From: Hormiphora californensis
Taxonomy: Eukaryota > Animalia > Ctenophora
Reading direction: 5' to 3'
DNA: 64,000 nucleotides
NCBI GenBank assembly: GCA_020137815.1
Contig: CM035353.1
Span: 7,688,001-7,752,000 of the forward strand
Of the stretch, positions 728 to 30,841 are shown one piece after another. The notes under the pieces are model-generated. The model ran no database searches. It was not told where the DNA came from and saw nothing but the letters and a program-made list of their open reading frames with translations. Numbering within the stretch: the stretch's first letter is position 1; every line of letters begins with the position of its first letter. Position numbers and translations under genes: made by a program.

Positions 728-3700
728 TTAATACCTCATACCTGGTTTTTTGAACACCAAATCATCTTCATCATCACTACTGTCATAGTCTTTCAACAGT
801 TTCTGGAACCCTGACCTGTCTACCCCGTCCCTGGACTGGCCTCCACCCCTACACCTTACCACTACAACTATAGCTAGATAGGTGACTGGGAACATCCCTA
901 CAATAGCCAGTAAGATAACTACAGAGACTGGGATCTGAGTACTGGATATCTTCCGTAGTATTGTCTTAGTAAGAGAGTTATCTTTAGTATCAGGGGTAGG
1001 AGGGGCAACTGAGGATGGGATAAATCTCCATACTTTATAGGGAGCTGCTATCTCTCCGGCAAATAACCCAAAGCTTTTCAGGTGTGTTATGGAGTGAGGT
1101 GTGTTCAGTGGAGAAGGGGAGGAAGGGGATGCTGCCTTGATCGTACCTGGAACAATATATGGTGTTATTTTGTGATTATATCCCTCTCTTATCAAGCTAT
1201 GTCATCTCTTTCACCCCCAGTTTCTGTATTACCATTCTATTACCTGTTGCAGGATCGATAGTCATTATTTTGCTCTCCCTATACCCCCCATCAGTGACGT
1301 TAACAGCAAAGAGTGCTGGAGGGTCAGTAGAGAAATCGACGCTATATACTGATCCAGGAATAGGGTAGACCCTGGTAAAGTTACCAGATATGTAGTTCAG
1401 TACATGGACCTGTAGGGGGACACGGGGGTGTGTGTTAGGAGGATGATAAAGATAGTTAGGAAGGATTAGAAGAGATTTAAGTATGATATATTCACCAGGA
1501 ACCGACCGAAACAAGTAAACAACCAATTAGAACTCGTTATTTAGGTCACGTGACTGGTAATCAGCCAATCAGGGACCAGTATTTCCTGATTCGGTCGGTT
1601 CCTGATATTCACCTGTCCGTTTTCCCTATCAGCAACATGTATCTCATGGTGTATAGGGTCGATGGTCAGGTCGTGTACCAACCCCATGATACCAGGCTGA
1701 AATTAGGTGTCAGCATTAGGTGTCAGCATTAGGTATCAGCACTCACCATTAGGTGTCAGCATTAGGTGTCAGCATTAGGTGTCAGCATTAGATGGCAGCA
1801 TTAGGTGTCAGCATTAGGTGTCAGCATTAGGTGTCAGCATTAGGTGTCAGCATTAGGTGTCAGCATTAGGTGTCAGCATTAGGTGTCAGCATTAGGTGTC
1901 AGCATTAGGTGTTAGCACAGTGTTGGAACTACACATCAGTGAGAGGTATAAATTGAAACATTACCTTTCCCTTCTCTGTCCCTGATTCTCCATACTGAGC
2001 AAGGTATTTCCCCGTGTGATCAAACTTAACAACCCTACTGTTACAGTACCCATCAGAAACGTAGATGTTACCAGCAATATCAACCACCTGTACACATTTG
2101 ACATTGGTAGAGACTAGAGCAGGAACCGACCGAAACAAGTAAACAACCAATCAGAACTCGTTATTTCGGTTGGTTCCTGAACTAGAGGATTAACCAGTTT
2201 TGAATGGGGTGTATAGCAACAACTAGCAACAACTAGCAACAACAACTATTACACGTACCACAGAGGTTGGTTTACAGAAGTGGGTCGAATCAGACCCTGG
2301 GTGATACTTGGAGCCCAGAATTAGGGATGGTTTACTCCACTCTCCCTTATTAAACTTGTATACCTGGTGGGGGAGATGTATCAGGAAGTGGTAGGAAGGT
2401 AGCTATTGTCTGAACATTGGGCAATATAACACATATTATGGAGTAGTCAGTTGTGGGAGGGGACATTGGGGGATGTACTGACCTGGTGTAATGCAACATC
2501 AGTCAGGTAGACATTGTCCTCAGAATCAAGGTAGACCCCGTGAGGCATTATAAACAGATCCTTACCAAAGGAGTCCTCTATCATTCCTATAATGGTGGTC
2601 ACTGGTCAGTATGAAACACACTATAAAACACCTTCCCTTACTCAACCCTCTCTGGAACAACAAACACAACATGACAACTAACCAGTCTCTGGGTTCACAA
2701 ATAGGACGGTATTCTCCTTGATGATCTCTGTTTTGAATAACACGTTGTTGCTCTGATCAAACCACTGTTTAGATGACCAATCATTGGATCCTCTGTGGAA
2801 CACCTGCGGAGAGGGATGTGTGTTGGAACTCCTGAGAGTTGTAGAAGGGTGTTGTGTTAGATCCTGTTAGAATTGTATTAGATGGGTGAGTTGTAGTAGA
2901 CTACTGCCATGCTACTCCTAGTATGTACTAAGTATCTACTATCTCATTTCTTACCACTAGTTGGTCCTGCTGAGTGTTGTGAGATAGTCCACCCACTTGC
3001 CCAATAGCAGAGGAGAGAGACCAGTTGCTGCTGACTTCGTATCGGTTAGCAAGGGGATCTAGAGAGGAAGGGTTAAGTAGATGGGGGATCTAGAGAGATA
3101 GAGGATGGGTCAGATAGCGGATCTAGAGAGATAGAGGAAGGGTCACATAGCGGATCTAGAGGGATAGAGAAAGGATTAGATAGGGGATCTAGAGGGATAG
3201 AGAAAGGATTAGATAGGGGATCTAGAGAGATACAGAGAAAGGGTCACATAGGGATCTAGAGAGATATAGAGGAAGGGTCAGATAGGGGATCTAGAGAGAT
3301 ACAGAGAAAGGGTCACATAGGGATCTAGAGAGATATAGAGGAAGGGTCAGATAGGGGATCTAGAGAGATAGAGAGGAAGGATTAAGTAGATAGCGGATCT
3401 AAAAGGATAGAGAAAGGATTAGATAGGGGATCTAAAGGGCTCAGTCAACTATTATATTATAGCAAGGCATGTTTACCCCACTCATCCTTCCTATCTACAA
3501 CTTGTTACCTGTAATGCGAGCGTAGCGAGGGACAGTGAACCGTTTACTTCGAAAGCACCCATCATCATTGTATCTGAAACAGGGGGGGGGGGGGTAGTGG
3601 TAATCAGAGAGATCATGGGCAACAATGAAGTAGAAGATCACATTTGCCAGCATTCAGCAACATTATATTATTCTTTCATGGTCTTCTTATTTTGTTACCT

Positions 3701-5719
3701 GAAAAGTGATAACCTCTTTTCCCTCCCACTCCCACTCTTTTCCCGTTTAGTTAGGAGAGGTAACATGCGCTCAAACCTGAACAAAGAGGCATTGACACTG
3801 TACATCAGATAGAAATTACACATCTCGTCCTTCCCAGTACTGCCGATTGTGGTTCTAGTGTCCCTGTCTGAACTATCAAATACACACCGGGCATGCACCA
3901 TATCACCTGAAGTAGATGGGGGAGTGAGTTAGACACGGTGTGATGGGGGAGTGAGTTAGACACGGTGTGAAGGGGGAGAGAGTTAGACACGGTGTGAAGG
4001 GGGAGTGAGTTAGACACGGTTTGATGGGGGAGTGAATTAGACACGGTGTGATGGGGGAGAGAGCTAGACATGGTGTGATGGGGGAGTGAGCTAGACACGG
4101 TTTGATGGGGGAGTGAATTAGACACGGTGTGATGGGGGAGAGAGTTAGACACGGTGTGATGGGGGGGGGAGAGAGTTAGACATGGTGTGATGGGGGGGAG
4201 TGAGCTAGACACGGTTTGATGGGGGAGAGAGTTAGACACGGTGTGATGGGGGAGAGAGTTAGACACGGTGTGATGGGGGAGTGAGTTAGACACGGTGTGA
4301 AGGGGGAGAGAGTTAGACACGGTGTGAAGGGTTGGGTTGGAGTGTGAGAGACACCGTCACCTCTCTAGAGGGCATCGCGGGCTTCGTTTTACCGTGCTAT
4401 GCGCGGGAGTTGTAAGGGTGACTGCGTCACCAACACTATTTAGACTCAGGACTACAATACGTACCTTCTGATATGAGCGTCTTCTCCCCCTCAATCAGAT
4501 AGAACATCTGAGGTTTGCGTGGGTCTCCAGTTCCTATTAGTTCCCACCTGCCCTCCCTCTCTCTCCATGCTGAGACCCTTCTTCCCAGTGTATGGGTATG
4601 GGTCCTGAATGCAAAGGGTTCTATCGTGTTCTTGCCCTGAAACACGCACCTCCAGTTACATTAGTTAGTTACACTGGTTACATAATGCTACATACAGCTC
4701 AGGTCTAGTTACACCCCTTTGTATTGGGTATAACAAGCTGTGAAGTATTGGTCTGTACTAAATCTGGTGATATCCCATACCTTGAACTCGCAGGACAGGT
4801 CTGCGTTGATGATAGAGTGGGGTGGAATAACAGTGGCACCATCTGCAAACAGGTAAATACCTGCCAACCTAGCTGGCTGCTCTTTTGTCACTACCAGATT
4901 CACACCTGCATAGTATAGAGCGTGTTAAAACCAGATCAGTATTATATCCTTACAGTGTTTTAATTCAGTCCACTAGAGGGTATGTTTCGAGTTAACACTC
5001 ACCAGATCAGTATATCCTTACAGTGTTTTAATTCAGTCTACTACTTACTAGAGGGTATTTCGAGTTAAAACTCACCGGATGAGTCAGGGTCTGCCACTAC
5101 GTGTTTGTAATGTATCTGCATAGCTATGTAGTTGATATTAGCATCCCTCCCAACCTTGAACCCAATCCCATCGGGCAGTTCAAACTTAGGAGCATCCAGC
5201 GCCCAGGCCCACAGGATAGTTGTTATTTTGGAGTCATATTTGCAGATACCTCCCATCCCCTCAAACTCGGACCAGTATTCTTTATCATGCGCTATCTCGG
5301 TACACCCGTATAGTAACAGGTGGTGTACTTTATCAGAGGACGCCTGGGAAGGGGTTGTTACAATCTTTATAGAGAGGGGACACTAGTTAGTAACAACTAG
5401 TAACGGGCGGGGGGGGGCAGTAACAAACTGAACTACGTACTTACCACAGCTTCGAATCCTAGAATATAAATCTCATCTTCAGTTATCTTGAAGGGGCGGA
5501 CTAGATATGAATCATGGGTTGTCGTCTTGACATCTACAAAGGGGGGGGGGTTAGTGTTAGTTTGGTTTGGGAGAAAACAGCCCTATTCTAGTATCCCCTT
5601 CTAAATTTGGAAGACTATATTTGTAGTGTGTTGCACATACCTGGCATTCTAATCTCTAGTTTCTCTGATAGAACATAAGGGATGAGAACCAGGAGAACTG
5701 CTAACAGATCCCGTGACAT
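728..5719 (-). CDS. PAM: Bifunctional peptidylglycine alpha-amidating monooxygenase (signal peptide-PHM-PAL-TM-cytosolic tail), 15 exons, about 717 aa
   Basis: Phase-consistent GT-AG exons: 5641-5719, 5445-5533, 5076-5343, 4781-4905, 4465-4636, 3777-3906, 3509-3573, 2955-3058, 2683-2803, 2483-2586, 2259-2363, 1965-2087, 1613-1696, 1244-1409, 728-1146. Signal peptide MSRDLLAVLLVLIPYVLS. PHM motifs IRMP, VHHLLLYGC, LWAWALDAP, MQIHY, FRTHTH, DEMCNFY. PAL motifs FHRG, MPHG, FCKPT, DGYCNSR, ADRENG, PHSI. TM helix and acidic tail. Exon 6 has an alternative in-phase donor at 3699. Confidence 0.93.
1496..1604. mobile_element. About 109-bp MITE with CAGGAACCGACCGAA TIRs and 8-bp TSD (hAT-like)
   Basis: TIR caggaaccgaccgaa...ttcggtcggttcctg; TSD ATATTCAC at 1488-1495 and 1605-1612; related copies at 2120-2179 and about 30842-30948. 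Confidence 0.8.
1703..1917. repeat. 13-bp intronic minisatellite (attaggtgtcagc)n
   Basis: About 16 direct copies abutting the 3' splice site of PAM exon 13. Confidence 0.9.
2120..2179. mobile_element. Internally deleted copy of the CAGGAACC MITE
   Basis: Same termini; flanks gactagag and aactagag form a near-TSD. Confidence 0.7.
3052..3440. repeat. Degenerate roughly 30-bp minisatellite (gatagggggatctagagagatagag...)
   Basis: Direct repeats; the minus-strand unit contains ctctctag|ATCCC, which matches the acceptor and start of PAM exon 8. Confidence 0.8.
3915..4330. repeat. 27-bp minisatellite (gagttagacacggtgtgatggggga..)
   Basis: About 15 copies in PAM intron 5; explains the spurious ORF 3805..4320. 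Confidence 0.9.
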
Positions 5720-5909: not shown

Positions 5910-7673
5910 CTAGTTGTATGAGTTAGCGACATGTTTGGGTACAAAGTTAAACTGATCTGGAACCTTGCCGAGCAACATTTCAGTTATTTTGATCCAGTCT
6001 GATGATTTGGCAGAACACATCAGGGTTTCCAGGTCGTCCCTCCCAAAGTATGTGGGTGGTCTCTCATTGATTCTCTGTGGTAACACCTCTAGTAGACCCA
6101 CTGGTATATACCGGTACAGGAAGGAGAGCCACTCCAACAGGAAGTGTCGACACTTCTCAACCCCCGCTATATCAGTTCCCCAGTGCTCCAACCCGTAGTC
6201 TCTGAATCTCTTCAACATGTCAAGTCTCTCGGAGGATGAGATATCGATATGTCTCTGCTCCTTGATCTCCTGGAATATCCAGGGTTTAATAAGGGCACCT
6301 CTACCTATCATAACCCCATCTGCCTGCTGTAGCCTGGTGTTATAGTCCTCATAAGACAGCACATCCCCATTACCAAATAGTGGTACCGGCTGACACACCT
6401 CCCGGCACTGTGATACATAGTCCCAGTCAGCGTGTTTGGTATACCTCTGCTGTCTTGTCCTACCATGCATCGCCAAGTGTGAAACCCCTGTTTTACTAAG
6501 TCTCTCACACAGTGCCTTGCCAGTGATGTTTTTCTCACTAGTCCCTATCCGCACCTTGACAGATATAGGAACACTAGACACCGCCACCATCGCCTCCACC
6601 ATCTGTTCTAGTCGGACTGCCCTGTCCATTAGGGCACTGCCAGCCCCCTTATTATAAACCAGATCTATGGGACACCCCACATTGAGGTCAATGAAGTCAA
6701 CATCACACTCACTACTAATCAGTTCAACAGTTTTAGCTACTTTCAGAGGGCTGTTAGCACAGATCTGTACCCCAAATATATTCTCTGTATGATGCCTCTT
6801 CATTAGAGCCCACTCACTAGCGTTACCTTGTAATAGATCCTCGCATAGTGCCATCTCTCCACATGTTACATCAACCCCATACTCCTTACAAACCCGTCTA
6901 AACGGGAGGTTACCGACTGTAGTTAGAGGGGCCAGGAATGTCTTCCCCCTGATAGCATCCCCTAGAGTCTTCCTTGGTTTGCTACTCAGACAATAGTACT
7001 CATCCCTTACTTCCTCAAACACTGCTTTGGTTGTGATAGGTTCCTCAGACACCTGATCTCCTTCAGGGCTCTCAACCTTAGCCCTCTTGTTTTCAGGGCT
7101 CTCAACCTTAGCCCTCTTGTTCTTGGTCCTGTGTTGCAGTAGCTCATTTGATATCTGAATCCCTGCATTCTCTAGGTGAGTGTAACTGGAACCAAACCAA
7201 ACCTTCTTACCCCTCAGATACGAGTGGAGGTCTTTTGAAAGTGTCTTCTTCACTTCATATATCTTCATTTTCTCCCATTTCTCTTCATCAACAATAGAGT
7301 TCAGTTCTGCATCAAGATGTTTAGAACCGTACCTACAGGCGATACCATAACTACACTTCCCAAACTTGTTGAATATAACACACTCCTCCCCCAGATCGCA
7401 TCCCTTTATCTCCAGAAACTGTTTCTTATCGTGAATCTTCTTACACACTTGACTGGTGATACCACACTCCTCGTTACGAATCACAGAGGGACACAGACGA
7501 TTAGATAGGAGCTGTCTGAAGGGCTGACGACGGTTCTTGTTCTGACCTCCCTTCCTCTTCTTTTTCTTCTTCTCCCCTGGCTCTAGGTCTTTATCATCAT
7601 CAGGGATAGGTTCCCGTGGTACTATGTACTGAGAGTACACAGGGGCCTCACCCACACGGCGGGTTACCATCAT
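5910..7673 (-). CDS. DUS3L: tRNA-dihydrouridine(47) synthase DUS3-like, single exon, 587 aa
   Basis: N-terminal CCCH-type fingers. Dus domain motifs LAPLTTVGNLPFRR, TCGEMA, FGVQI, IDLNVGCP, MHGRTRQQRY, GNGD, MIGRGALIKPWIF, LEHWG, LLEWLSFLYRYIP, FVPKH. Confidence 0.95.
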   Translation of the reverse strand: MMVTRRVGEAPVYSQYIVPREPIPDDDKDLEPGEKKKKKRKGGQNKNRRQPFRQLLSNRLCPSVIRNEECGITSQVCKKIHDKKQFLEIKGCDLGEECVIFNKFGKCSYGIACRYGSKHLDAELNSIVDEEKWEKMKIYEVKKTLSKDLHSYLRGKKVWFGSSYTHLENAGIQISNELLQHRTKNKRAKVESPENKRAKVESPEGDQVSEEPITTKAVFEEVRDEYYCLSSKPRKTLGDAIRGKTFLAPLTTVGNLPFRRVCKEYGVDVTCGEMALCEDLLQGNASEWALMKRHHTENIFGVQICANSPLKVAKTVELISSECDVDFIDLNVGCPIDLVYNKGAGSALMDRAVRLEQMVEAMVAVSSVPISVKVRIGTSEKNITGKALCERLSKTGVSHLAMHGRTRQQRYTKHADWDYVSQCREVCQPVPLFGNGDVLSYEDYNTRLQQADGVMIGRGALIKPWIFQEIKEQRHIDISSSERLDMLKRFRDYGLEHWGTDIAGVEKCRHFLLEWLSFLYRYIPVGLLEVLPQRINERPPTYFGRDDLETLMCSAKSSDWIKITEMLLGKVPDQFNFVPKHVANSYN

Positions 7674-7960: not shown

Positions 7961-9462
7961 CTATTTCATCTTGGTTGCACTATCAATATCATCATATTCC
8001 TCCATCAGTCCATCCATCTCCCCAATATGTCTCCTGCCCATCCTGCCTCCACCCTCCTCACCCTGCCAACCTAACCTCACCATCACCATAGCAACCAACA
8101 CTGTTGCCATTATCACCAGGGTGATAAGGTAGGGGTGTGTTGTAAAGAATGCCCCCACTACTGCTGCCCAGGTATCTAGGTTGGGGTGGGCAGATACATC
8201 TCCAAAGTGGGCAGGGGTAGAGCACTGCCCAACACTGTCACCCTCTCTATCAGTAGGTACCATTATTAGGAGGGTCAGTAGACATGTCTCCTTGCTGGGT
8301 GCCCGGTAGGGGGTGATGACAGGAGGCAGGTTGTTAGGGGTGTAGTCAAACTGACACCGTACCTTCAGTACCTCCCCTGACTGGATCCGTATCGGTGTGT
8401 CGAATGTGTGAATCTGATGGGAGTCAGTAATCCTGGTAACTAGGATGTCACGTGACTTCACTCTCTTAGTGTTGGTGATGGCAGTCTGGTTATTCCTCCA
8501 CAGTATAACACTTTTACCATGCTGACCCAGGTCAGTATACACCCCATATATCATGAACCCAGCACCAATCTGGCACCTTGTATCCACATTGAATAGAGTG
8601 TGGGTGTTGGAGGGCCGGGATACAGTCCTGTGGAATTGGTAGTTGCTCTGCCGGAATTTAGGCTTTGTGAAACAGTCCCTGAATGTCACCTTTACATCTT
8701 TGGGTCGTAGTGAGATGGTGTTCTTGTACTGGTTGGGGTTGTAGAACTTGACAAGCCGAGCAACTAGGAAATGAACATTAGCGTCGTATCTGAAACGGGG
8801 AGATTATGATCAGAAGGCTTTAAAATACTCATCATTAGGACAACGACAATTCTAGTGTGTACTGGATTAAATGGGAGAGAGTTTAAAAATGCAGACATAA
8901 CAACCTCATCATATAATGTGCATGAATCAAAATGAATATTATTCTCTCTCTCAACTCATCCTACCCTCCCCCTCTCTGATCCCCATCTCCCATATCTGAT
9001 CCCTATCTCCCCTCTCTCCCACTGCTACCTGATCATTCTCTCACCAGTCACCAACCCCGTCTCCCCACCCTCGTCACCCTCTTCCCACCATCTCCTCACC
9101 CTCCTCTCACAACTCACCCTACCCTCCCCCTCCCCCTCCCCCTCCCTGATCCCCATCTCCCATCTCTAATCTCCATCTCCCCTCTCTCCCCTGCTATCTG
9201 ATCATCCTCTCACCAACCCCCCTCTCCCCACCCTCTATCTCTTAACTCACCCGACATGAACCCCAGTATTGGGAGGTAGGTTCTGAACAGCCTGTCCATT
9301 GTACCAGGCCCACAGAAGGGTGTGTGTCCCTCCTCCACAATGTCTTGGGTTTAGTTCCGTATCAGGAACTAGATCCTCTCTAGGTCCTGAGGTAGCGAGG
9401 TGGATACAGGCCGTTTATATATATTGAGTGTGTTGCAATCAAACTAAACCACACCTGGCCCC

Positions 9463-9540
<78 letters not shown>

Positions 9541-11512
9541 GGAGAGAAACATTCGAGAGTGGCCGTGGTGAGGGAAACAGTCAACAAAGAGAGATAGAGA
9601 GAGGGACGTGGGGGATGGGGCAACATAGTGAGATAGAGACAGAGAGGGATGGGGCAACAAAGAGAATGTAACACACGAACTATTGAGGTGAACTATCATG
9701 TGGTAGGTTGCACAATACCCCCATTCTAATCACACGACTAGTCTAATACACGTGTGTCATGTGCAGTGTGTACTGTGTATAACACTACCACTACATAATA
9801 TGATGTCAGGCACTGTAATATCGCGCTGTTTCTCTCCTCACCGGGCCTTCAGTCCGGTTTGGAGAGTGCGGTCTTTTGTGAGACAATAAACATTTGGAGG
9901 GCCGGACAGGGGGGCCTACATCACGTGAGGGGCTTGAATCACGTGAGGGAGGAGGACATTACATACCCTTCACGAGTTTGCTACACCCGTACAGCTCCAC
10001 TCTACTCATGGTATTGTCCCAGTCGAGTATGTTGAAGTTAGATAGATAGCTACTTGCCATATCTGCATACACACCTGAAGGAATGTGTGATATATATGAG
10101 GCATAAACTCTGGCCACTGGCGCGTTATTTCAGATAACTTTCTCCCAGCGCGCCGCTGGGAGAAGTTAGCTGGAGTTTATCCGCCGCTGGCGGATAAACT
10201 GGTTTAAATCACGACGACGATCCCGAGGCTTAGCCGAGGGAGAGGCGGAGGGGTTTAAACCTATAACGTGCCAGTGGTCAGAGTTTATGGGTTATATACC
10301 CTGCTTTAGTTGTTTATTTCAAGTATTACACACCAACAAGAGAGAGAACACTAATCAAAACACACAAAGAGAACTGAGAAATAGTTAAAAACACGTCACA
10401 ATTGAGTGTACACTGTTTGGTAACAGTTACTAAGCAGTTGCTAAGGAAAGAGAGTGAAAGAAATAGCCTGATAAGGGGCATGTCACAAATAACACAGAGA
10501 AAGAGATAGTGAGACAAAAGGGGAGATAAAGAGAGAGTAATTGACGGAATGTGTCCTTTCTTTCTCTCCAATGTAGTGTGTAAGTGTTGCACATAGTGTT
10601 CCCTCTGTATTTTAGTAAGAACTGATCATTTACACACACTTTGAATGTTACGTAGGAGTTAAAAATAAATAACCTGCCAGTGGGAAATAATCTGCCGCTG
10701 GACTGGCTGTTTACTGAGAGCGCGCTAGTGGGACTTCTCGCCACTGGCGCATTATTTAAGTTAGCAGGGTATATAACATTATAACGCATTGTTTCTAGTG
10801 TGTGACGTGCATTGTTTCTTGGACACAAGGAAATGAGAGATGAGTATTGAATCTCTGAGCACTGATTCTATTTCAAGAGACACTTATTATTATTAGTTGT
10901 TCCATATCTGGTTTGTTTACCTCCAAAGGCAGGTGACACTGCAGCCACATGTATGTTCACATAGTGTTCCTCACAATCATGGTGTCGTGCTGCTAGTCTT
11001 TGCATCATTTGATACAGTTTAAACAGAAGGAAAGTTTTCACCATATCTCTCTGTCTATCTCTCTCCTTCTGTCTCTCCTCCTTGAGAGCCTGGAGGTGAT
11101 CCTTCAGCAGTGACACACTCACAGCCACCTCCTTATTGCCTGATGATGCGGGGGGAGGTTTAGCTATCTGTCCCTGTAAAGTACTGTGCTGTTTGTTGTC
11201 TTTGTGAACCACGTTGAACTGTTTAACTGTGTGTCTTGTCTGTTTGTGTGTTGGGTCTGGAATTACAACCCTCTTCTTCTTGTGTTGTTTGTTGGTAGGT
11301 TTGTCTGTCCGTCTGGTGTGTCGGGGAGGGGCAGGTATTTGGTTTCCCACCTTTACATCAACCTTCAGATTCTTGGCGTTGTTAAGGATGGCTTTAGCTG
11401 AGGAGCTCACTACTGGTGGTGGGGGAGCTGGTTTAGCTGGGGGAGGAGGAGGAGGTGGGGGTTCCAGGAGTTGGGCCACTGACACACTAAACAATAATAC
11501 CATCAACATCAT
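7961..11512 (-). CDS. PHM-fold type I membrane protein lacking all copper ligands (putative pseudoenzyme), with a Pro-rich/basic/coiled N-terminal extension; 4 exons, about 554 aa
   Basis: Exons 10921-11512, 9967-10074, 9251-9386, 7961-8789 join in frame (phases 1,1,2) with no stops. Signal peptide MMLMVLLFSVSVA. PHM landmarks VELYGC, LLWAW..LPPNTGVHVG, GEVLKVRCQFD, KETC. TM PYLITLVIMATVLVAMVMV. Confidence 0.8.
10100..10780. mobile_element. Hairpin-rich non-autonomous repeat with paired inverted repeats (family also at about 56.67-57.29 kb)
   Basis: IR pairs ataaactctggccactggcgcgttat/ataacgtgccagtggtcagagtttat and gttatataccctgct/agcagggtatataac; nested hairpins; shares blocks with 56700-57120. 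Confidence 0.6.
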
Positions 11513-11971: not shown

Positions 11972-14954
11972 TCAATAAGAGTGCTTGTAGGACCTGTATA
12001 GAATTTCATCTTCATCTTCATCATCCATAGGGCTAAACAACTTTTCAAATCCTTCATTTCCCTTTGTGTAATAGGCAGTCCTGAGAGGGAGATAAGAGCA
12101 TTGAATAACAAATAGCAAACAACACCAAGTTATATTCCTGACACAATTTCACCACCCAAGATATGGTGCTAATTTCCTGATGGTGTCTTACTTGGGACAG
12201 AAGTATGCCTTGGTACAGATAGCAACAGCGAACACGCCCAGTACAACTATAAGGATGATAACTATAGACCTGATTAGTCCCTCTCCCTTAACATAGTGGT
12301 CGTACCAATGTTCATCCTGCAAGGTAGCTGTGTTAGTAAACAGCAGGTCCCACAGCAGGGAGTTAGATCTCTATTTAAATTAAGTAGAAAGTGACTGAGA
12401 CTGACTGAGAGTCTCAGTCAGTGAGTGTATATTTCAGCCCGCCCTCTCCTTTACTCAGACAAATGGATTGAAGAAGGGGCCCTCTCCCACTTGGTTAGTT
12501 ACCTGATGTCCAGGTACACTGAATATTCTCTTTTGGGTACATTCCTCTGTTATACTACCAATCTGGGAACTCTCTGGAAGGAGCACATTTTATTAAATTA
12601 AAGAAAGGAAGAAAAAGCAACTACAGTCGGACCCCGATTTAGTGGCCCCCGATTTAGTGGCACCCCGATTTAGTGGCAGGATTTTTCCCCCCGATATATA
12701 GAAAACTAACATTATTTGACCCCAATTTAGTGGCACCCCAATTTAGTGGCAGGATTTTTTCCCCCGAGGATGCCACTAAATCGGGGTCCGGCTGTAGTAT
12801 AATGTAGCTTGTGTATACGAGGGGTGATGGTTACTTACCAGTGTAATACATTAGGTAGAGATTGCACATTTCATCATTATGAGTTGATCCAATAGATATT
12901 GTTCTGTTTGTACTCCTCGTATCGAACTCACACCTGATGATGTGAGTTGTTACTTGGTGTCAGGAACTGTTAGGATACATGCCACATGCCACACACAACA
13001 GTAATAACTAGAGTAGTCTCATAATAATAGTAACAACTGTCCTAGATACACAATAGTAACTACAGCTGGTAATAGTAACTACTCGTACCTTGCATAAACA
13101 GTATCCCCAGGTGTTATTACAAAGACCTCGCTGGTCTTAACAAACATCTCACTAAGATTGGGATCTCTTGATCCTAACATATCCCAGTCACCTTCGTGCT
13201 CTCTCCACCCACTTATCTGCAGGGAGGGGGTGTAAATTGAGTTGGATAAACTACCCAATGAAATTTAGGTCTATCTCATATTGTTGATGGTCCTTGTCCC
13301 GGAGAGTGCTGTACTCACGGTTGCGAGGAGCTATTAACACACCTATCTCATACTAATCTCACTGGATTCTCTCTCTCTCTCTCTTACCCGTCTAGCCCAG
13401 GTATGGCCATGTGTTCTGTAAGCGAAGACGTTAATTGCAGGGGCGGTATAGTTGCAAGCTAGGTCGAGGTGGATATCTTTCTGGCCAGGGGGGAAGGTGC
13501 CCTCTAGAGCCATGAACAGGTAGATGCCCGCACTGTACCGGGTAGGGGAGGAATTGAAGAACACATCAACTCCGGAGGTATCCTTGTAGTCATCAGGCTG
13601 GGCCAACTGAAATTGTTAATGTTGTACTGATATATCTAATTACAGAGGTCGCCGGAATACCTTCTTACTACTACTGATATATTTAGGTAACTAGTATTTA
13701 CTGAGTAACACGTAGTAACTAGTAACAAGTAGTAACTAGTAGCAACTAGCAGTAACTAGTAGTAACTAGTAGTAACTAGTAGCAACTAGTAGTAACTAGT
13801 AGTAACTAGTAGTAACTAGTAGTAACTAGTAGTAACTAGTAGTAACTAGTAGTAACTAGTAGTAACTATAGTAGCTCTACCTTGTAATGAAGCTGTGCCA
13901 CGAGATATCTAATACGTTTGTTCCCTGCCTCTATGCTAACATTAGCAGGAAAGGCAAATTTGGGTGCGTCTAGAGCCCATGCCCACAATATAACACCCTC
14001 GCCATCTTTACAGGTCCCTCCGCCCAGCCATGGGTCTGTACTAGGGATCTGGTAGGGGGTAAGGATGGGTTAACAGGGGTCTGTACTAGGGATCTGGTAG
14101 GGGGTTAGGATGGGTTAACAGGGGTCTCTAATACTAGAAATCAGTACAGATCAGTAATCAGGGTGTCACAGTGTTCAGGTGACCTACATCGGGGCATCCA
14201 TACAGTAAAAGATGGTGAACTACACTAGATTTAGCAGCAGCTCTGTACCCCGTTATATACACTGTATCCTTCACTTCAGTGGGTACATGCCAGTACATGT
14301 CGTCTTTAGGTACCTGGATACCTGGGGGAGAGTGGGAATTAGGTACCTGGATACCTGCATGGGAGAGTGGGAATTAGGTACCTGGATACCTGTGGGAGAG
14401 TGGGAATTAGGTACCTGGATACCTGGGGGAGAGTGGGAATTAGGTACCTGGATACCTGGGGGAGAGGGGGAATTAGGTACCTGGATACCTGGGGGAGAGT
14501 AGGAATTAGGTACCTGGATACCTGGGGGAGAGTAGGAATTAGGTACCTGGATACCTGGGGGAGAGTGGGAATTAGGTACCTGGATACCTGGGGGAGAGTG
14601 GGAATTAGGTACCTGGATACCTGGGGGAGAGTGGGAATTAGGTACCTGGATACCTGGGGGAGGGTGGGAATTAGGTACCTGGATACCTGGGGGAGAGTGG
14701 GAATTAGGTACCTGGATACCTGGGGGAGAGTGGGAATTAGGTACCTGGATACCTAATATGGACTTTAGATGACCTGGGATACTGACTCGAGGACAGTCGG
14801 GGAGATTAGAATGGCTATAATAGTGGAGGGATGGGTTGTATCTAGATAATCAGATGTTACAAGAAGGTTAACACATACCTGGCATTCTAATCTCAATAAT
14901 ATCATCGTCTCCCAACACAAAGGCAAATAATACCGTCAATAGTAACACTGACAT
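11972..14954 (-). CDS. PHM: Monofunctional membrane-anchored peptidylglycine alpha-hydroxylating monooxygenase (no PAL domain), 9 exons, about 374 aa
   Basis: Phase-consistent exons 14879-14954, 14188-14321, 13881-14048, 13388-13606, 13089-13216, 12839-12933, 12503-12573, 12192-12316, 11972-12080. Signal peptide, IRMPG, VHHLLLYGC, LWAWALDAP, AQLHY, YRTHGH, DEMCNLY, TM SIVIILIVVLGVFAVAIC, tail GFEKLFSPMDDEDEDE. Confidence 0.9.
12624..12794. mobile_element. Tc1/mariner-pogo-type MITE
   Basis: TIR cagtcggaccccgatttagtggc...gccactaaatcggggtccggctg with TA on both sides. Confidence 0.8.
13712..13868. repeat. 10-bp minisatellite (agtaactagt)n
   Basis: About 14 direct copies in a PHM intron. Confidence 0.9.
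14309..14755. repeat. 33-bp minisatellite made of a 3' splice site plus exon start
   Basis: Minus-strand unit ctaattcccactctcccccag|GTATCCAGGTAC, about 13 copies; the last copy is the PHM exon 2 acceptor. Confidence 0.9.
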
Positions 14955-18819: not shown

Positions 18820-21800
18820 ACTAACCGATAACCCCAAACAAATCGCCTGCCCCCAAACAGACCCTGACAACAGCCCTAACCCGTCTCGACTGCCAAAATC
18901 GATGAAGGCATCCAGATTTTAAGGGCGCCGTTACGATCTGGGTGTTTGATGGGCTGTTTACAGCTGCGCCCTTCCAAAAAAGTTGATTCACTAAATAAAA
19001 ATGGCTCTCCCCGAAGTTCGGGCCCGAAGGCCGAACCACTCAACCGTTTTGGCTAATTCAAAGTTTATCTGGTAGGAAATATCAAGGCCTCACCCCAACC
19101 CAAGCCCCAGCCCTAACCCTACGGCCTACTTTAGCCCTAACCCTAAAATACGAGTTGTCCTAGAAATAGCGGAGGACACACTCTGTAAGAAGGCAGAACC
19201 ACGAACAACCAAGCCCAAGAAGATCTCTGAACCCTTCAAAAGAAAAGCAAGGAAAATTAAAACGAAACTAGAGCTTGATCTGGATCCCTTTGAAAAGAAG
19301 CTATTACGAAACCAACTCATAGACAATGACGAAGAAATGAAAAAGGAGATCCGGCAGAACCTAGACCGTGGAGAAGAGAAGGCGGTTGATACGATTAAGG
19401 ATAATCCCAGATTCTTCTACACTTACGTGAAGAAACGATCCAAAACTGCGTCATCCGTTGCCCCCCTAAGAAGAGTAGACGGCAGCCTTACAACAGAAAG
19501 TGCAGAAAAAGCACAACTGTTGCAGAACCAGTATACTCGGGTGTTCAGTGACCCTACAAAAGTCGAAGTGAATGCCAGCCTCTCCTGGATTAAATCGGAA
19601 CCAGAAGCTATCCTTGATGATTTTGACTTTACCCCCGAGGATATCAAAGCTGCCCTGAAAGAAATCGACCCGTACGGCTCAGCACCCGACGGAGATATCC
19701 CTGCAAGGATACTTTATGAGTGCAGAGCACAGCTTGCCTACCCACTTTGGCTCCTTTGGAGAAGATCGATGGACAGTGAAACCATCCCCCCGTCTCTCAA
19801 AAATCAATACATTGTCCCAATATTTAAAAAAGGCGACAAGACTAACCCCGCCAACTATCGACCGGTATCACTAACGTCGAATATCATCAAGACGTTTGAG
19901 AGAGTGATGAGAAACCGTTTAGTTGACTTCCTTGAGGAGAGCAAAGTGTTTCCCGAATCGCAGCACGGTTTCCGCAAAAGAAGAAGCTGCCTTACCCAAC
20001 TCATCGAGCATGTGGACTCAATACTCAAGGAACTCAGAGAAGGAAATGAAGTCGATGTCATTTACGTCGACTATGCCAAAGCGTTCGATAAGGTTGATAT
20101 AAATGTCCTCCTGGCCAAACTCGAACGGTATGGAATCCAAGGGAAAACCCTCAACTGGATACGGTGTTTCCTAACAAACAGATACCAAACAGTTGTTGTG
20201 GATGGAAAAAAGTCTTCGTGGGAAATAGTTCGAAGTGGTGTTCCACAGGGGACAGTGCTTGGCCCTCCACTATTTATTCTTTATGTGGCAGATCTAAACT
20301 CCGCTGTCCTTAACTCAACCACGAAAACCCTGGCAGATGATACAAAACTGATTAAAGGGATCCAAACTGAGGATTCTCACACCCAACTACAAGAAGATCT
20401 TACGGAGGTAGGAAGATGGTCAAAAACAAACAACATGAGCCTCAACGAAGATAAATTTGAAGTGCTACATTACACCCTCAACAAAACCTTCCTCCTAAAG
20501 CAACTGCCTTTCGTCGCTGAACTGGAGACGTACTACACACCTGAAGGACTTGAAATCGAACCAAAGGAATGTGTTCGAGATCTAGGGATTCAGTTGTCAA
20601 ATACCCTGTCTTGGGAAAACCAAATCGGAAAAATGACCTCTGATGCTAGGCGGATAAGTGCGTGGGTTCTACGGGCGTTTAAGACCAGAGCCAAGAGAAC
20701 TATGCTAATTCTCTACAAAAGCCTTGTACGCAGTAAGCTTGAGTACTGCTGTCCACTTTGGGACTCTCCAAAAATCTCCAATATCCAACAAGTTGAGACA
20801 ATCCAAAGGAAATTCACAAAGAGGATCCAGGATATGTGCAATTTAAACTATTGGGACCGCCTGAAGAGGCTGGGGATCCTCTCGCTTCAGCGAAGGCGAG
20901 AACGCTACTCCATCATCATGGTCTGGAAAATGGCCAACGGTGAAGCGCCAAACAATATCGGGATCCGCTTTTACCAAAATGATCGCCTCGGACTACGAGC
21001 GGAGGTGCCAACGTGTCCCACTACCACACAGTCGTCGGTGGCCACGAAATTCCACAACTCCTTCGCTTCTAGAGCGACCCGACTATGGAACACTCTCCCA
21101 AGTGATGTGAACTCAGCCAAAAACCTCTCTGCGTTCAAAGTACTTCTTGGGGAATGGTTGAAGAGGATGCCGGACAGACCCCCGGTACCTGGATATACCA
21201 GACAAAATAACAACTCAATTCTGGACTGGATACTCCTTGTATCCAGGGAGGGGGAGGCTCTGTGAGGAGCTGACACCGGTACAGCATCTGTACGAAGCCA
21301 TTTACAAGATTACAAGATTACAAGAAACCGTTCGTCAGCACTCAGCGGTCAGCACTCTCCAAACACCCAGATTTTTACGCTGGCCAGATTTTTTAACTTT
21401 GCCCGGTGACGCGACCGCGACGAGAATTTACTGAAAAAGTCAAAATTCAAACTGCGAAGCCACGAAATGTAACGCGCGAGCTTTAGCCACTGATAAATGG
21501 TGAAAGCGCTGCCAAATTTTAGCTCTTATCAAGCCGCGCGCTCTGAATTTAAAACCGCGACCGGTCTTGAACGGCTTTCGGAATCTTTTAAAAATCAAAA
21601 TCCTTTCTCGGGTGCTTTCAAATTGTTTGAAAAGCGATGCCTTATCCCGCGCTGTCGGGGGCCAGCAACGTTTGCCAATCAAATTGTCAAAATTAGCACA
21701 AAACGGCCCCCTACACCCCCGCCGGGGCTGCGCCCCTGGGCCCCGCAGGTGGGGGGTTTCACACCCCCTGACCCGGGCTACCGCCCAAAACCCCTGGACG

Positions 21801-22180: not shown

Positions 22181-22331
22181 CCTCCTTTTCCTGTTCTCTC
22201 TGGTTTCTATCTTTCAGCAACCCAGAAAGTGTGATTTGCTTTTGCCAAGCAGTATTTTTAGATACAATTCAAATCTTTAACTGTTATAATTTTAGTGCAA
22301 GGATAGCGGGTGTGGGGTCACACTTGGCATC

Positions 22332-23105
22332 ATGGGGTGCTGCCAATCAACTGAGAGCGACCAGATCTCTAATACGTTAATGGTTCAATTTGCAAGTAAC
22401 CAAAGTATTCAGACAAAATCAGGGCTCAGAGATCAAATCACTAAACGGGAATGGATAATGAAATATGGGTATCCCACAACAGACAACCTATTCCAGTATG
22501 AAGGTCATATCCTAGCTTACAGCAACTTCTTCAAGTGTCCCCTGTGGGTGTGTGAAGGTTTAACAAAAGATATGCTCGACAAGAAGTCCATTGACAGAGG
22601 TCAGAGGCGTTTTGAGAAGGTTGACCTGATTCCAGTTATGTTCCAAAGCAATTACAATGATTACAAGGTGAAGAATATTGATCGGGGTCACATGGCAGCA
22701 GCGGGCAACCATCATTACTCAGAACAGGCCCTATCTGATACATTCTTTCTCAACAATATCTGTGCTCAAACCAGGAATGTTAACCGATCGATATGGAAGG
22801 AGCTGGAGAACCACGTCAGGAAACTGGTAGGTCAGCATGGTACAGTTCATGTGATAACCGGGCCTCTCTTCTGTACAACCACCAAGTACCTTGAGATTCA
22901 GATGCTTGGTAAAAACAAGGTTGCCATGCCAACTCATTTCTTCAAAGCTCTCTGCTGGGCAGGGAGCATGGAGGGGTATATCATCCCTAATGAGGACACT
23001 GTCAGTGGAGAAATAGAACAGTATAAAGTTGGGACAATTTGTGAGATTGAGAAAGTTGCCGGGTTTAGAATTTTTGAGAAGGCCCAGGCTACACGAGAAG
23101 AATGA
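22332..23105 (+). CDS. Endonuclease G-like nuclease 1 with MGCCQS N-terminus
   Basis: Intronless ORF; KYGYP, PLWVCE, DRGHMAAAGNH, TFFLNNICAQ, WKELE, VITGPLF, MPTHFFK, IEKVAGF. Confidence 0.9.
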   Translation: MGCCQSTESDQISNTLMVQFASNQSIQTKSGLRDQITKREWIMKYGYPTTDNLFQYEGHILAYSNFFKCPLWVCEGLTKDMLDKKSIDRGQRRFEKVDLIPVMFQSNYNDYKVKNIDRGHMAAAGNHHYSEQALSDTFFLNNICAQTRNVNRSIWKELENHVRKLVGQHGTVHVITGPLFCTTTKYLEIQMLGKNKVAMPTHFFKALCWAGSMEGYIIPNEDTVSGEIEQYKVGTICEIEKVAGFRIFEKAQATREE

Positions 23106-23359
23106 CTATGGACCTCCCGTGAAATTATTTTAATTTTATCTGATTATGTTTTCCACAGCTCACTGATCTAACAAATGTGTTTTTTCAACATCTTTTTAAT
23201 TTTTATCACATCTGGATACTGTAACACAGATAAAATGATTGTTGTTTAATGTGTTCAGTTTTGTTTTACATTTTATTCGTGATGATATTGTGTTCTCTTA
23301 TGTTTTACCACCATAATAACTTCCCATATAACCTATTTACAGCTGTACCGAGTTATGTC

Positions 23360-24232
23360 ATGGGGTGCTGTTGCTCTAAGAAGGGCCACAGAAAGGATTC
23401 GGATGTTGATTTAGAGCATGTCTCACAACCACCAGCACCACTACCAGTGCCTAAACGGAGGGCTCCTTCACCCCCACAGAAACGAAAAGAGACATTTCGT
23501 AAACCGGATAACATCAATGTAAACAAGGGAGGGATTAAATTCCACAATGTATCTGGGAGATTAACTCCCGAGCAAAAAAGGATTAAGGATGTCTTAATGA
23601 TGTATGGTTATCCTACAAGGAAAGATCTGTACCTTTATGAAGGACACATTTTAGCCTACAGTGAGTTCCATAAATGCCCTCTATGGGTATGTGAGCGTGT
23701 TACAGCGGAGCAGCTCCGTCCAGAGCGGAGGGTTGTTAAACAGCGTTATATCGCTCCTGACCTAGACTACCCTGGATTTAGTAAGGGACATATGGCAGCT
23801 GCAGGAAATCATAAGCACTGCCAGCAGGCGCGTTATGACACTTTTGAAATGACCAACTTCTGCCCTCAAGTACAGGATCAAAATGAAAGGATTTGGAATG
23901 ATTTGGAGAAACATGCTCGTGAAATAGCTACTAAACGGGGATTCTGCCATATCTTAACTGGTCCTGTGTTTCCAAAGATTCCTGAGAGGATTGGTATTGA
24001 TAACACGTCAGTACCTTCTCACTTCTTCAAGGTTCTCTGTTGGGATATACATGAGGGGTACATGCAGATTGAGTCGTACCTCATTGCGAACAGGGAAGGT
24101 ATCAGTCGAGGGTTATCACCTCATGTTGTAAGGAGAGTTGATATTGAGGATAAAGTAGGGTTCCCTGTGTTTGAGGCACTGAGACCAGAGTGTCACCATT
24201 GCAAACGGTACCCGTGTAAATGTGGGATGTGA
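23360..24232 (+). CDS. Endonuclease G-like nuclease 2 with MGCCCS N-terminus and SKGH active-site variant
   Basis: Start placed at ATG 23360, after acceptor tttacag (23342); YGYP, PLWVCE, SKGHMAAAGNH, TNFCPQ, WNDLE, LTGP, VPSHFFK; Cys-rich C-terminus. Confidence 0.85.
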   Translation: MGCCCSKKGHRKDSDVDLEHVSQPPAPLPVPKRRAPSPPQKRKETFRKPDNINVNKGGIKFHNVSGRLTPEQKRIKDVLMMYGYPTRKDLYLYEGHILAYSEFHKCPLWVCERVTAEQLRPERRVVKQRYIAPDLDYPGFSKGHMAAAGNHKHCQQARYDTFEMTNFCPQVQDQNERIWNDLEKHAREIATKRGFCHILTGPVFPKIPERIGIDNTSVPSHFFKVLCWDIHEGYMQIESYLIANREGISRGLSPHVVRRVDIEDKVGFPVFEALRPECHHCKRYPCKCGM

Positions 24233-24696
24233 GATTGAAAATATGAAAATATTAACCTAACTATTATAGTTATTAGTTAGGTTAATATATTTTGTTTTAT
24301 ATCAATTAACTATTCAATTATATGTAATTATTCCGCTTTTAATGTCACAGTTTTTGGTTTTAAAGTTCTTTCGAGTGTTTCTGAATCAGAGTGTGGAGGA
24401 CTAGGTTCTGTGTAGTTAGGATCTTCTAGGTTTTACTGCTAGACAGAAGTTCGTATGTGTGTGTTTCTAACTGTTTCTAACTGTTTTTTAAACAATTTTC
24501 TATAATTAACTAATCTAACCTTAATTTATTATCTCCGGCCATTATCTAAGCATAGCTTTTTATTCTATTATTCCAAGACGACCGCTTTAGTCGCGGTGGA
24601 GAGATGTTCATACAACACTAGCCATTAGGTTCTTTAGTTGTTTCCTCCATTTATAACGCATAAAAGCGGTATATCAAATGTATATATTATTATTAG

Positions 24697-27600
24697 TAAT
24701 AATAATAATAACTATGTTTGTATTCCGCCCATATCCGACAGGGACAGAGCAGTAGAACTGTTTCTGTCACTGAAGGATGATCTGAACGGTTAACATACTT
24801 GAATAAACCTGCCGACTAATCCTTAATATTGCACAAAAAATGGTAAAGAAAAAAACAACGGCCCACATAACTATCGGTAACTGAAAACATAACAGACTGA
24901 GATAGAGTCCTGAAACTCTAAAAAGATGGTTTAAAAGTCCAATAGATAGAAAACACTCGTGCTATGAAAAAACCCAAAACGTGCTTCACACTTCTGCTCG
25001 CCACGAGCCAAAATACAGAAAAAATAAAACAGGTACCAGCTAGAGCACAAACCTCAGTAAGATGGAGAGAACACTCCTAGGACAATCAGGATTCACCGAA
25101 AGCCTCAATGAAGAGACTAGTCTTTAGCTTAGACTTGAAAGAGTCCACAGAGTCAATTGCTCTCAGATCAATGGAAAGCTTATTCCAGATTTCAGGCAGA
25201 TAAACCGACGGACGTCTCCTCCTCAACTTAGAAGTTGCATTCACACTGGATAGCTTAGGATACCTCAGCTTGAGGCCATCAGGCTGAGCGTTTCCTCTGG
25301 TAGTCCGGATCACATGTAGTCCATCATCCACAGGGACCTGTTCCTGCAGGTACACTGGAGCCAAGCCATGTACAATCTTGTACGCCATTAAGCAAACCTT
25401 GAACTTAACTCGCTGTTCAATCGGGAGGACGTGCATTTCACTCAAGTAGGGCATGTAACTGTCCTGGTGACCATACAGGCCATACACAAATCTGACACAT
25501 GAGTTCAGAACTCGCTGCAAGCTATCCAGGAGCTTCTTTGGTAAGCCAGAATAAAGGACATTACAGTAGTCAAGTCTCGAAACGATGAGTTGCTTCACCA
25601 GAAGCATCTTGGTCGATTTATCCAAACATCGGTTAACCTGCCACAAATTCTTGAGAAGCATTCCACATTGCTTCTTAACACTGTTGATCTGCCTTTCCAT
25701 CGAAATGTTACTGTCAAGGAATACACCCAGGGTCTTCCCTGCAGATCCAGTAAATTCCATAGGGCTGATTTCCACTCCTCCAAAGCTTACTGTGGGCTGG
25801 AAGACCATCTTATCCAGAGCACTGCTCTTACCTAACAGTAAAAACTCTGTCTTTGCCTCATTACACTTAAGCCAGTGATCACTCATCCACAGTTTCACAC
25901 TTGATAGACACTCCTCAATCCTCTCCTTCGCTGCATTCCAACCATCCTCGTCAGTAGGCACAAGACTGATGTACAGTTGAGAGTCATCAGCGTATAGCTT
26001 AATCCTCAGACCAAAGGGTCTAACCAAGTCCTGGAGCTCCTCGACATACAACAAGAACAATACCGGCCCAAGCAGTGACCCCTGTGGAACTCCACATATC
26101 AGCGTGATGATCCTCGAAAGCTCCCCCTCCACATTAACTCGGTAATTCCTACACTGTAGATAGCTGGCAAACCAATCCAGCACAGAGCCTTTCACTCCAA
26201 AACGTCCTTCCAGAGTCTCTAGCAGCTTCCCATGGTCCACTGTATCAAAGGCGGCACTCATGTCTAAAAGAAAGAGGCCAGTGACCTTTCCTTCATCAAG
26301 GTCTCGTAGTAAATCATCAAACATACCCATCAGGAGTGTTTCACAACTATGTCCCACCCGATAACCCGATTGATGTTTGTTCAGTAACTCATTCTCATTG
26401 AGGTATGAGTTCAGCTGCTCTAGGACAACCTTTTCCAGTAATTTGGAGATAAACGGTAGGTTGGAGACTGGACGGTAGTTGGATAAGGAGTCTTTGTCCC
26501 CATGGGGGTTCTTAATCGTAGGAAAAACCAATGCTTGTTGAAGAATATCAGGAACGCTGGAACACTGGAGTGATAGGTTTACAAACTTGCACAAAGCGGT
26601 GGCTAGCTCATCAATGCAACCTTTCACCAACCACGTAGGTATGAGATCAAGATCACAGGTCTTGTCAGGCATATCTTTGATAATCCTCATTAGTTTCTCT
26701 GGGGAAACTTCCTCAAACTTTTCAAAACAACAGACAGGGGTCTGATGTAAAACATTCCTCGTTGTTCTCTGGTTCTGCTCCTCTAACACAGTAGTTCGGA
26801 TCCTCTCAACTTTTCCAACAAAGAAGTCACCAAAATCATCCGCTAGCTTCCTCTTATCACTTGTTTCTGGTAGAAAGGTTTCATTGTTTCCAAGAAGGCG
26901 GCTGAGCTTCCTCTGAAGTGCTTTTGGGTCATCCCTTGATTCCTCTAGATCATCTTTCACATACTTCATTCTCGCCTCTTTATCCACACGTCCAAACTGT
27001 CTCTTGAGGTCATTGAATTGCTTCTTCGTTATACTAGTTCTGTTGCTTTCCCAAGCCCTCTCGGCTTTCCTTCGTAGTCGAAGAACCTCACGCACCTCTG
27101 GATTATCTCTCCATGGCTTTATCTTCGCCCCTTTCTTCTTCTTCCTCTTCAGTGGGACAGTCCTCTCCACAAGATCCTCGATTATCCTCGAATAAGCAGT
27201 CAAAGCATCCTCAGCAGATTTAGACTCCATCACCGCACTCCAATCCACATCTCCAAAAGCTCGCCTGAACAGTTCCAGGTCAACTGCCCTAAAATCCCTG
27301 TATGTGTCAATCTGTTCACGGGTTTTGTATTCACTTCTAGTAGTCTCGATTAACAGATCAGCTAAAACCATAAAGTGATCCGAAGTTGTCCCTTCTGGAA
27401 ATATTGTCACTGATTGAACTTTGGAAACTCTGTCTTTTTGGCACAGCAAGAGATCAAGAGTACCTCCTCGAACATGGGTGGGTTGCATTGGAACTAATTG
27501 ATCAAACCCCAGAGAGTCAAGCAGTGCAAGTAATTTCTTGGCATAGAAGTTCTGGGTGTCATGGACCTGGAAGTTAAAATCACCCATCAGAACGGGATAT

Positions 27601-27775
27601 CCAGTTTTGCAGACTAGCTCGGACAGATAGTCATTAAACTCATCCAGGAACTGTGCTTCCGTATATCTTGCCTTGCCCGTGTAAGGAGGCCTATAGATAT
27701 TGCACAACCTTGTAAGATCCTGCCCAATACCGATAAGGGCTTCCTGGACCTGGAATGATTTAAACTTAGTCTTTA
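24697..27775 (-). mobile_element. L2/Jockey-group LINE with partial AP endonuclease and RT (ORF 25086..27707)
   Basis: IYRPP, MGDFN, PTH..GGTLDL, SDHF (endonuclease); NYRPVSNLPFISKLLEKVV, QSGYR, LDMSAAFDTVDH, GVPQGSLLGP, YADDSQLY, LDYCN; (TTA)n tail near 24697-24712; 5'-truncated. Confidence 0.92.
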
Positions 27776-27838
27776 CTGGTGTGTAGTCTTTACTGGTGTG
27801 TAGTCTTTACTGGTGTGTAGTCTTTACTGGTGTGTAGT
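27767..27838. repeat. 17-bp tandem repeat (tagtctttactggtgtg) x4 at the LINE 5' junction
   Basis: Four direct copies. Confidence 0.85.
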
Positions 27839-29999: not shown

Positions 30000-30008
30000 T
30001 ATGTTACA

Positions 30009-30806: not shown

Positions 30807-30841
30807 TCAATAACGGGGGGTATACTGTGTATATACTAACT

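Follow-up and report, generated by a model that had tools for sequence, protein, structure and literature searches.

The pseudo-PHM gene and its transcripts

The window analysed here is a stretch of 64,000 nucleotides from the ctenophore Hormiphora californensis (assembly GCA_020137815.1, contig CM035353.1, positions 7,688,001 to 7,752,000 of the forward strand), and all coordinates are counted from its first letter. Four genes follow one another on one strand in the order PHM-TM, pseudo-PHM gene, DUS3L and PAM (Table 1). The subject of this study is the second of them, whose product is predicted to adopt the fold of the copper monooxygenase PHM and lacks the residues that bind copper in that enzyme. 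The gene consists of four exons separated by GT..AG introns and contains 1665 coding bases (554 amino acids and a stop codon) with no internal stop, in agreement with the stop-free four-exon frame described in an earlier note made from the sequence alone.

A search with exon 4 identified a protein of Pleurobrachia bachei (sb|3464086 in EukProt, here P0001) that is 96% identical over this exon and is joined as in the gene model at all three intron positions; the P0001 record is possibly not transcript-based. Its first five residues differ from those of the window protein and it lacks a signal peptide. The two proteins differ at 11 of 300 residues in the core, at 8 of 116 in the N-terminal extension and at 4 of 77 in the membrane helix and tail.

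To assess RNA support, six public RNA-type runs were compared with the region. A single contig from run X3 (239 bases, depth 2.3) spans the joints 10921/10074 and 9967/9386 exactly, this being the one run of the six with these joints, and an RNA contig of run X2 covers the exon 4 stretch 8640-8790. Of the three junctions that the earlier note had singled out for verification, two were thus bridged and the third, 9251/8789 at intron 3, was bridged in none of the six runs. Intron 3 is supported at the protein level, as P0001 is joined at the same place and in a more distant relative, P0013, a single frame continues across the corresponding region. Two other relatives, P0002 and P0008, start where exon 4 starts, a hint that this intron may be shared in the family. 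Both of the RNA differences listed for exon 4 are synonymous, out of six that the contig carries. The overlap of runs X1, X4 and X5 with the region is free of exons, and the words that they share stem from a repeat in intron 1. This repeat element (10093-10780) contains a 36-base inverted repeat (10093-10128 / 10263-10298), has a 66% copy at 56660-57127 and is covered in several RNA-type runs.

Table 1. Genes and features of the PHM/PAM cluster, with positions in the window
Feature	Coordinates	Strand	Residues and remarks
Pseudo-PHM exon 1	10921..11512	-	1-197; start codon and likely signal peptide, then the Pro/Lys-rich extension, the long helix and the first PHM-fold strand
Pseudo-PHM exon 2	9967..10074	-	198-233; site of the former CuH His-His; joined to exon 1 by an RNA contig
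Pseudo-PHM exon 3	9251..9386	-	234-279; carries the LLWAW landmark; matched by P0001 and P0013
Pseudo-PHM exon 4	7961..8789	-	279-554; remaining PHM fold, membrane helix, cytosolic tail, stop
Likely signal peptide	11474..11512	-	1-13; judged by hydropathy alone; missing in the P0001 model
Poly-proline run	11414..11461	-	18-33; opens a basic extension (isoelectric point 10.7) predicted to be disordered; pLDDT <50 for P0001 residues 1-72
Predicted helix of ~48 residues	10988..11134	-	127-175; directly before the fold; AlphaFold2 helix 72-119 of P0001, pLDDT 85-89 over residues 81-100
S221/R222, replacing CuH ligands H107/H108	10001..10006	-	same S-R in P0013
R290-L-V292, replacing Q170-x-H172	8750..8758	-	Arg kept in 5/5 covering rows (window, P0013, P0002, P0003, P0008)
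Y363, D365, G367, replacing R240, H242, H244	8525..8539	-	from rat PHM and family alignments
H406, at the rat Y275 column	8408..8410	-	family-invariant His, 6/6 family rows
T447, replacing CuM ligand M314	8285..8287	-	from rat PHM and family alignments
Membrane helix	8072..8134	-	498-518; hydropathy peak 2.56; helix in the model; present in 6/6 family rows
Tail motif ExxxLM, of [DE]xxxL[LIM] type	8003..8020	-	536-541; 5/6 family rows
Lys third from the C-terminus	7970..7972	-	6/6 family rows, 0/2 intact neighbours
PHM-TM, intact monofunctional PHM	11972..14954	-	371 residues, 9 exons; all ligand motifs, membrane helix, acidic tail; Cu2_monoox_C E=1.3e-5 (one exon)
DUS3L-type dihydrouridine synthase	5910..7670	-	intronless; Pfam Dus E=1.7e-58, zf-CCCH_DUS3L E=2.6e-8
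Intact bifunctional PAM	728..5719	-	743 residues, 15 exons

Family, fold and active-site columns

Relatives of the window protein were drawn from ENA and Logan records and are designated by P numbers. When 1.84 billion representatives were searched exhaustively with a portion of exon 4, eight matches came up: P0001, one repeat artefact (P0006) and six true relatives. A repeat accounts for the match of P0006 and its cluster P0014-P0019, which were therefore excluded. Word-based searches returned only P0001 or three rows already in the query, and in a scan of JGI metagenomes none of 57 pattern matches was confirmed. Six family rows were counted (window, P0013, P0002, P0012, P0003 and P0007); P0004, P0005 and P0009-P0011 (cluster-mates), the 60-residue fragment P0008 and the near-identical P0001 were left out of the counts. 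Identity among these rows is 26-41%, except for P0002 and P0012 (77%), and identity to the active neighbours 13-21%. Four further lineages retain the cysteines, the membrane helix and the tail. In a tree of eight rows a very long branch set the family off from PAM and PHM-TM, and the tree favoured neither of them as its parent. Judged from these comparisons of sequence, the window gene is a member of an old family and not a decaying copy; the family may be ctenophore-wide.

Exon 4 alone matched no Pfam family and no PHM among PDB sequences, and neither did P0001 alone match a PHM among PDB sequences. Against Pfam, P0001 scored 16.2 bits with PF01082 (gathering score 30; E=0.012) and the best relative, P0005, scored 21.5 bits with PF03712 (gathering score 23); the gathering score was thus reached by neither, and such divergence makes the family invisible to usual annotation. 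Evidence from single sequences is thus weak, and the link to PHM needs a family profile or the fold. Family profiles were built without any active enzyme. When they were compared with PDB sequences, rat PHM/PAM accounted for all 13 matches in a first run (E 4e-7 to 7e-6) and for the top 13 of 16 in a second (best 1.3e-9), the next match, unrelated, being at 0.69. Other comparisons agreed. A Smith-Waterman alignment with the model of the neighbouring PAM, which is partly mis-spliced, scored 90 versus 32.4+/-4.8 (maximum 54) for 500 shuffles; a profile of the two intact neighbours gave the window protein 32.7 bits versus a best of 5.9 among 1000 shuffles; hhalign against these two neighbours returned 99.1%. 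In a language-model search PHM/PAM clusters ranked first (0.95), and a search of an atlas of unnamed clusters, taken as a lead only, reached 0.88 at best.

The fold was modelled with AlphaFold2 for the core of P0001, from an eight-row family alignment that contained no PHM (predicted local distance difference test, pLDDT, 70; predicted template modelling score, pTM, 0.68). Foldseek matched this model to rat PHM with E=1.9e-13 and a template modelling score of 0.64. In a VIA-align comparison with 48,161 chains, rat PHM was found at Z 22.8 with a root-mean-square deviation of 3.2 Å over 268 residues, and among lower matches were dopamine beta-hydroxylase (Z 14.3) and, as best non-monooxygenase, PNGase F (Z 8.6). 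Both beta-sandwich subdomains of PHM are present in the P. bachei model. The core contains eight cysteines, among which the ancestral pairs 228-250, 351-468 and 424-448 were aligned; four disulfides are predicted for the window protein, the three ancestral ones and a new, likely C180-C318 pair. Combined, the family profiles and the structure prediction support the PHM fold that the earlier note had proposed, and the landmarks it listed (YGC, LLWAW, RC and several Cys) are indeed kept.

The window protein thus resembles the rat PHM core of PAM (PDB 1PHM, 5WM0, 1SDW; PF01082 and PF03712) in the predicted two-sandwich fold, in the YGC, LLWAW and RC landmarks and the C315-equivalent, in the three Cys pairs and in a type I topology with an acidic tail. 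It differs by the loss of the six copper ligands and of R240, N316 and Y318, by an identity of only 13-15% that stays below the Pfam gathering scores, and by an extra Cys pair, an extension of ~165 residues, a basic surface and the lack of PAL. No PAL (NHL-repeat) domain fits between the last cysteine (468) and the membrane helix (498), which lie ~30 residues apart in the window protein and its relatives. Dopamine beta-hydroxylase and MOXD1 have the same catalytic-core fold and score well below PHM; the N-terminal DOMON domain expected of these enzymes and of TBH had no Pfam match on exon 1 or on P0001, where the region is predicted to be disordered with a helix, and in the window protein the membrane anchor is C-terminal instead of N-terminal and the ligands are gone. 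PNGase F is a metal-free hydrolase with catalytic acids of its own, so that a fold of the PHM/PNGase F type is used without copper; it is bacterial and 6% identical, the comparison being one of folds and not of shared active-site residues. A homodimer prediction for P0001 residues 70-420, in which the alignment was not used, scored 0.09 (mark 0.32) and speaks neither for nor against a dimer.

To our knowledge peptides are amidated by way of PHM alone, and the copper ligands of this enzyme are regarded as invariant. The rat positions H244, Q170, Y275, N316 and Y318 are numbered as we take them to be in that enzyme. The numbering of H107, H108, H172, H242, M314, R240 and Q272 follows the available part of PMC12164859. 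Alignments with rat PHM and with both intact neighbours gave the registers, and the four motif replacements previously reported against the neighbouring PAM are present in the same register against PAM, PHM-TM and rat PHM. All six copper ligands are replaced in the window protein, as had been claimed, with one reservation: the partner of H172 is uncertain by at least one residue, since V292 takes this place in the ungapped register and K293 or Q299 in other alignments, and no register places a His there. N316 and Y318 are replaced as well, by L449 and T451.

The replacements extend to the family. The H244 column is Gly in 6/6 rows, the H242 column Asp or Glu in five and His in P0013; the M314 column reads T/V/L/L/I/H with Met in none of the six, and Arg is never found at the R240 column. 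Because several homologues are fragments, the H107/H108 columns are seen in just two lineages, both with S-R. Each row keeps at most one of the ligands it covers, and the loss of all six holds for the window and P. bachei proteins. P0013, which keeps His at the H242 column, also has His at Y318, and P0007 has His at M314, so that these proteins may be intermediates or have partial metal sites. No alternative three-ligand metal site is conserved across the family rows, and rebuilding of the metal sites by other residues, which would have spoken against a dead enzyme, was thus not seen: His occupies the Q272 column in just 2/6 rows, and most of the invariant positions carry residues of a structural kind such as Cys, Gly and Trp. 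In rat PHM each of the substitutions M314H, H242A, H107A, H108A and H172A leaves at most ~5% of activity, as given in the available part of PMC12164859. Combined, the profile, profile-profile and structure comparisons and the family-wide ligand loss support the proposal of a catalytically dead PHM fold, and we consider it very probable that the window protein is copper-less and inactive as a monooxygenase. As regards what is expected of a pseudoenzyme, the enzyme fold is kept in the model and the catalytic residues are replaced; possible signs of expression and purifying selection are the spliced RNA of one of the six runs and the conservation of the family.

Topology, tail motifs and possible roles

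The N-terminal extension of ~165 residues is seen only in the window protein and its P. bachei orthologue. Its poly-proline run is as previously described, and a long helix is predicted in it; the basic site RHTRR reads QHTRR in P. bachei. Of the two membrane-related features noted before, the transmembrane segment is supported by hydropathy and by the model; the signal peptide is called from hydropathy (10-residue mean 2.75, versus 3.0-3.2 in the two intact neighbours) and is absent from P0001. In the tail, a [DE]xxxL[LIM] motif occurs at one shared position in 5/6 rows and is expected in 2-6.5% of shuffled tails. The tails of the two active neighbours lack both this motif and the Lys at -3, but have a similar Phe-x-x-Leu and an acidic stretch. 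The acidic dileucine-type motif and the -3 Lys resemble what we take to be AP-adaptor and COPI signals, a meaning derived from mammalian and yeast work. The luminal domain has an isoelectric point (pI) of 8.7-10.4 in 5/6 family rows versus 6.6 and 5.2 in the intact neighbours.

Among the roles left open by the earlier note (receptor, scaffold, structural protein or regulator), the conserved tail motifs shift the weight to a trafficking or cargo receptor, and the others are kept as lesser alternatives. We tentatively favour, at somewhat less than even chances, a non-catalytic receptor that sorts cargo in the secretory pathway. By analogy with mammalian PAM, a type I membrane protein with a copper-less PHM fold would bind luminal cargo. 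The columns of R222 and R290 presumably face the cleft in PHM, and Arg or Lys at cleft positions (R222, R290, K293) might stand in for the charge of the lost copper ions. The resulting basic cleft could then take an acidic ligand, for example a granule matrix protein or the precursor of a peptide. AP adaptors and possibly COPI would be engaged by the tail motifs, and the protein may shuttle from early secretory compartments to endosomes or granules and back, like catalytically dead mammalian PAM for proANP. In PHM itself the coppers and R240, which binds the substrate carboxylate, together give the cleft five positive charges (PMC12164859, available part). In mouse atrium proANP storage is rescued by PAM1/M314I, a monooxygenase-dead form, as it is by active PAM, and the authors suggest that PAM acts as a cargo receptor with COPI recycling (bioRxiv 10.1101/2020.03.08.982777, as far as its text was available). 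Atrial PAM is thus alike in that a monooxygenase-dead membrane PAM acts in the trafficking of a soluble cargo, a function its authors liken to that of cargo receptors; it differs in being the second job of an active enzyme, revealed by an engineered M314I that keeps PAL, whereas the window holds a separate natural gene with both copper sites lost and no PAL. A role of PAM in ciliogenesis appears to need activity (PMC5461114, available part) and so gives no support for a ciliary role of a dead copy.

Several points weigh against a sorting receptor. The tail motifs are short, and as homologues the rows are non-independent trials. In P0003 the pI is neutral and the dileucine-type motif is missing; one Lys at -3 does not make a canonical dilysine signal. 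The positions of cleft side chains, including the direction of H406, are not measurable in the model, and fragmentary homologues limit the view of H107/H108 to two lineages. The basic, Pro-rich extension and long helix would fit a surface or matrix feature as much. Furthermore, the mammalian rescue (bioRxiv 10.1101/2020.03.08.982777, available text) used a whole PAM with active PAL, which is absent from the window protein.

A copper-less protein of the cell surface or facing the matrix, with a receptor, adhesive or structural function, which binds extracellular polyanions or a partner cell and whose tail motif drives only endocytosis or polarity, seems rather unlikely. It would account for the type I topology, for the very high pI of luminal domain and extension (8.7-10.7) and for a poly-Pro stalk, a long helix and dibasic sites able to shed the extension, but the link between fold and membrane is very short, the conserved -3 Lys and the PAM-like tail suggest intracellular cycling and the extension is known only from the window protein and P. 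bachei. It is unlikely that the protein regulates or chaperones the neighbouring active PHM or PAM, by association or by competition for the trafficking machinery, and so tunes neuropeptide amidation. The same-strand cluster with intact PHM-TM and PAM, the similar gene-id spacing in Mnemiopsis and the similar tails agree with such a role; however, tandem duplication alone accounts for the adjacency, the unrelated DUS3L lies in the same cluster, and with the R240, N316 and Y318 columns all replaced a peptidyl-glycine trap is unlikely.

It is decidedly unlikely that the PHM scaffold now serves a different enzyme, one that relies on H406, R290 and the acidic residue of the H242 column for a new reaction or for a reconstructed metal site. 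PNGase F shares the fold, H406 is invariant, the H242 column is D/E/H in 6/6 rows, P0013 retains H242 and P0007 has a His at M314; against this, no three-ligand set is conserved, only two rows have a His at Q272 and the invariant residues are mostly structural. Decay of a recent duplicate without function is largely refuted and very improbable: the very long branch from the active enzymes and the low RNA depth would fit it, but the frame is open in the window and P. bachei genomes, spliced RNA exists, and relatives at 26-41% identity keep the Cys pairs, the membrane helix, the tail motifs and the same replacements.

Neither pseudoenzymes as a class nor a non-catalytic role of PAM is new. A ligand-less PHM has no description in the literature searched, with most subscription papers outside its scope, and 'pseudoenzyme' with 'peptidylglycine' gave no paper there; the earlier statement that no example had been described stands within these bounds. 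In its fullest form, which we regard as doubtful, the sorting-receptor interpretation would make the window protein the first dedicated pseudoenzyme derived from PHM. It would belong to an ancient family, probably present throughout the ctenophores, in which the granule cargo-receptor moonlighting of PAM was split into its own gene, with a basic cleft in place of both copper sites that selects acidic peptide precursors or granule proteins, and which marks or builds a ctenophore-specific secretory cell type. If true, a natural copper-less paralogue would separate the catalytic from the trafficking job, which in mammals were split only by an engineered mutant. It would do so in ctenophores, a group whose peptide signalling is at the heart of the debate over neuron origins.

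The gene cluster and other features of the window

The earlier note had compared the pseudo-PHM gene with the downstream PAM only and overlooked the upstream PHM-TM. In PHM-TM the exon 2/3 joint was picked among five open options. Only intron 2 of the pseudo-PHM gene lies near a same-phase PHM-TM intron, and as that joint was the one so chosen, shared intron positions were not used as evidence of origin. The pseudo-PHM gene presumably arose by duplication within the PHM/PAM cluster. The first intron of PHM-TM contains a tandem array of ~33-base units, each with splice-like AG/GT words. DUS3L is intronless while the flanking PHM paralogues have many introns. The linker between PHM and PAL in PAM (3699-3906, minus strand) abounds in dibasic pairs (several of them KR), at which the two enzymes might be separated.

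Mnemiopsis gene ids presumably follow the order along the scaffold. With ids in gene order, two genes lie between ML00113a and ML00116a, as in the window, and ML00114a is by this order a candidate orthologue of the pseudo-PHM gene. According to Supplementary Table 5 of PMC9525235, ML00113a is a partial PAM whose best C. elegans match is a monofunctional PHM, and ML00116a is a full PAM. Together with ML02634a these genes belong to the same superfamily, and ML00113a and ML00116a are spaced as PHM-TM and PAM are in the window; they differ in being recognised PAM/PHM homologues (PMC9525235, available part). ML00114a and ML00115a occur in none of its four supplement files and in no main text searched. 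Its searchable text and tables contain no ligand-less paralogue; short models were excluded from its tree, and Supplementary Figure 1, with PAM domain diagrams, may include the gene. Should ML00114a prove to be the orthologue, a cell type could be assigned at once from the single-cell data available for Mnemiopsis.

Elsewhere in the window, five tandem intronless Endonuclease_NS (EndoG-like) genes lie on the plus strand at 22296-32246 (Pfam E 5e-26 to 5e-55). Four of the five start with Met-Gly-Cys-Cys in place of a mitochondrial presequence, which we take to resemble a myristoylation and palmitoylation anchor, and the fifth looks like an ordinary EndoG. Three long reverse transcriptase frames of long interspersed nuclear element (LINE) type are found at 19076-21265 (plus strand), 25086-27806 (minus strand) and 59154-60479 (minus strand), one of them within the endonuclease array.

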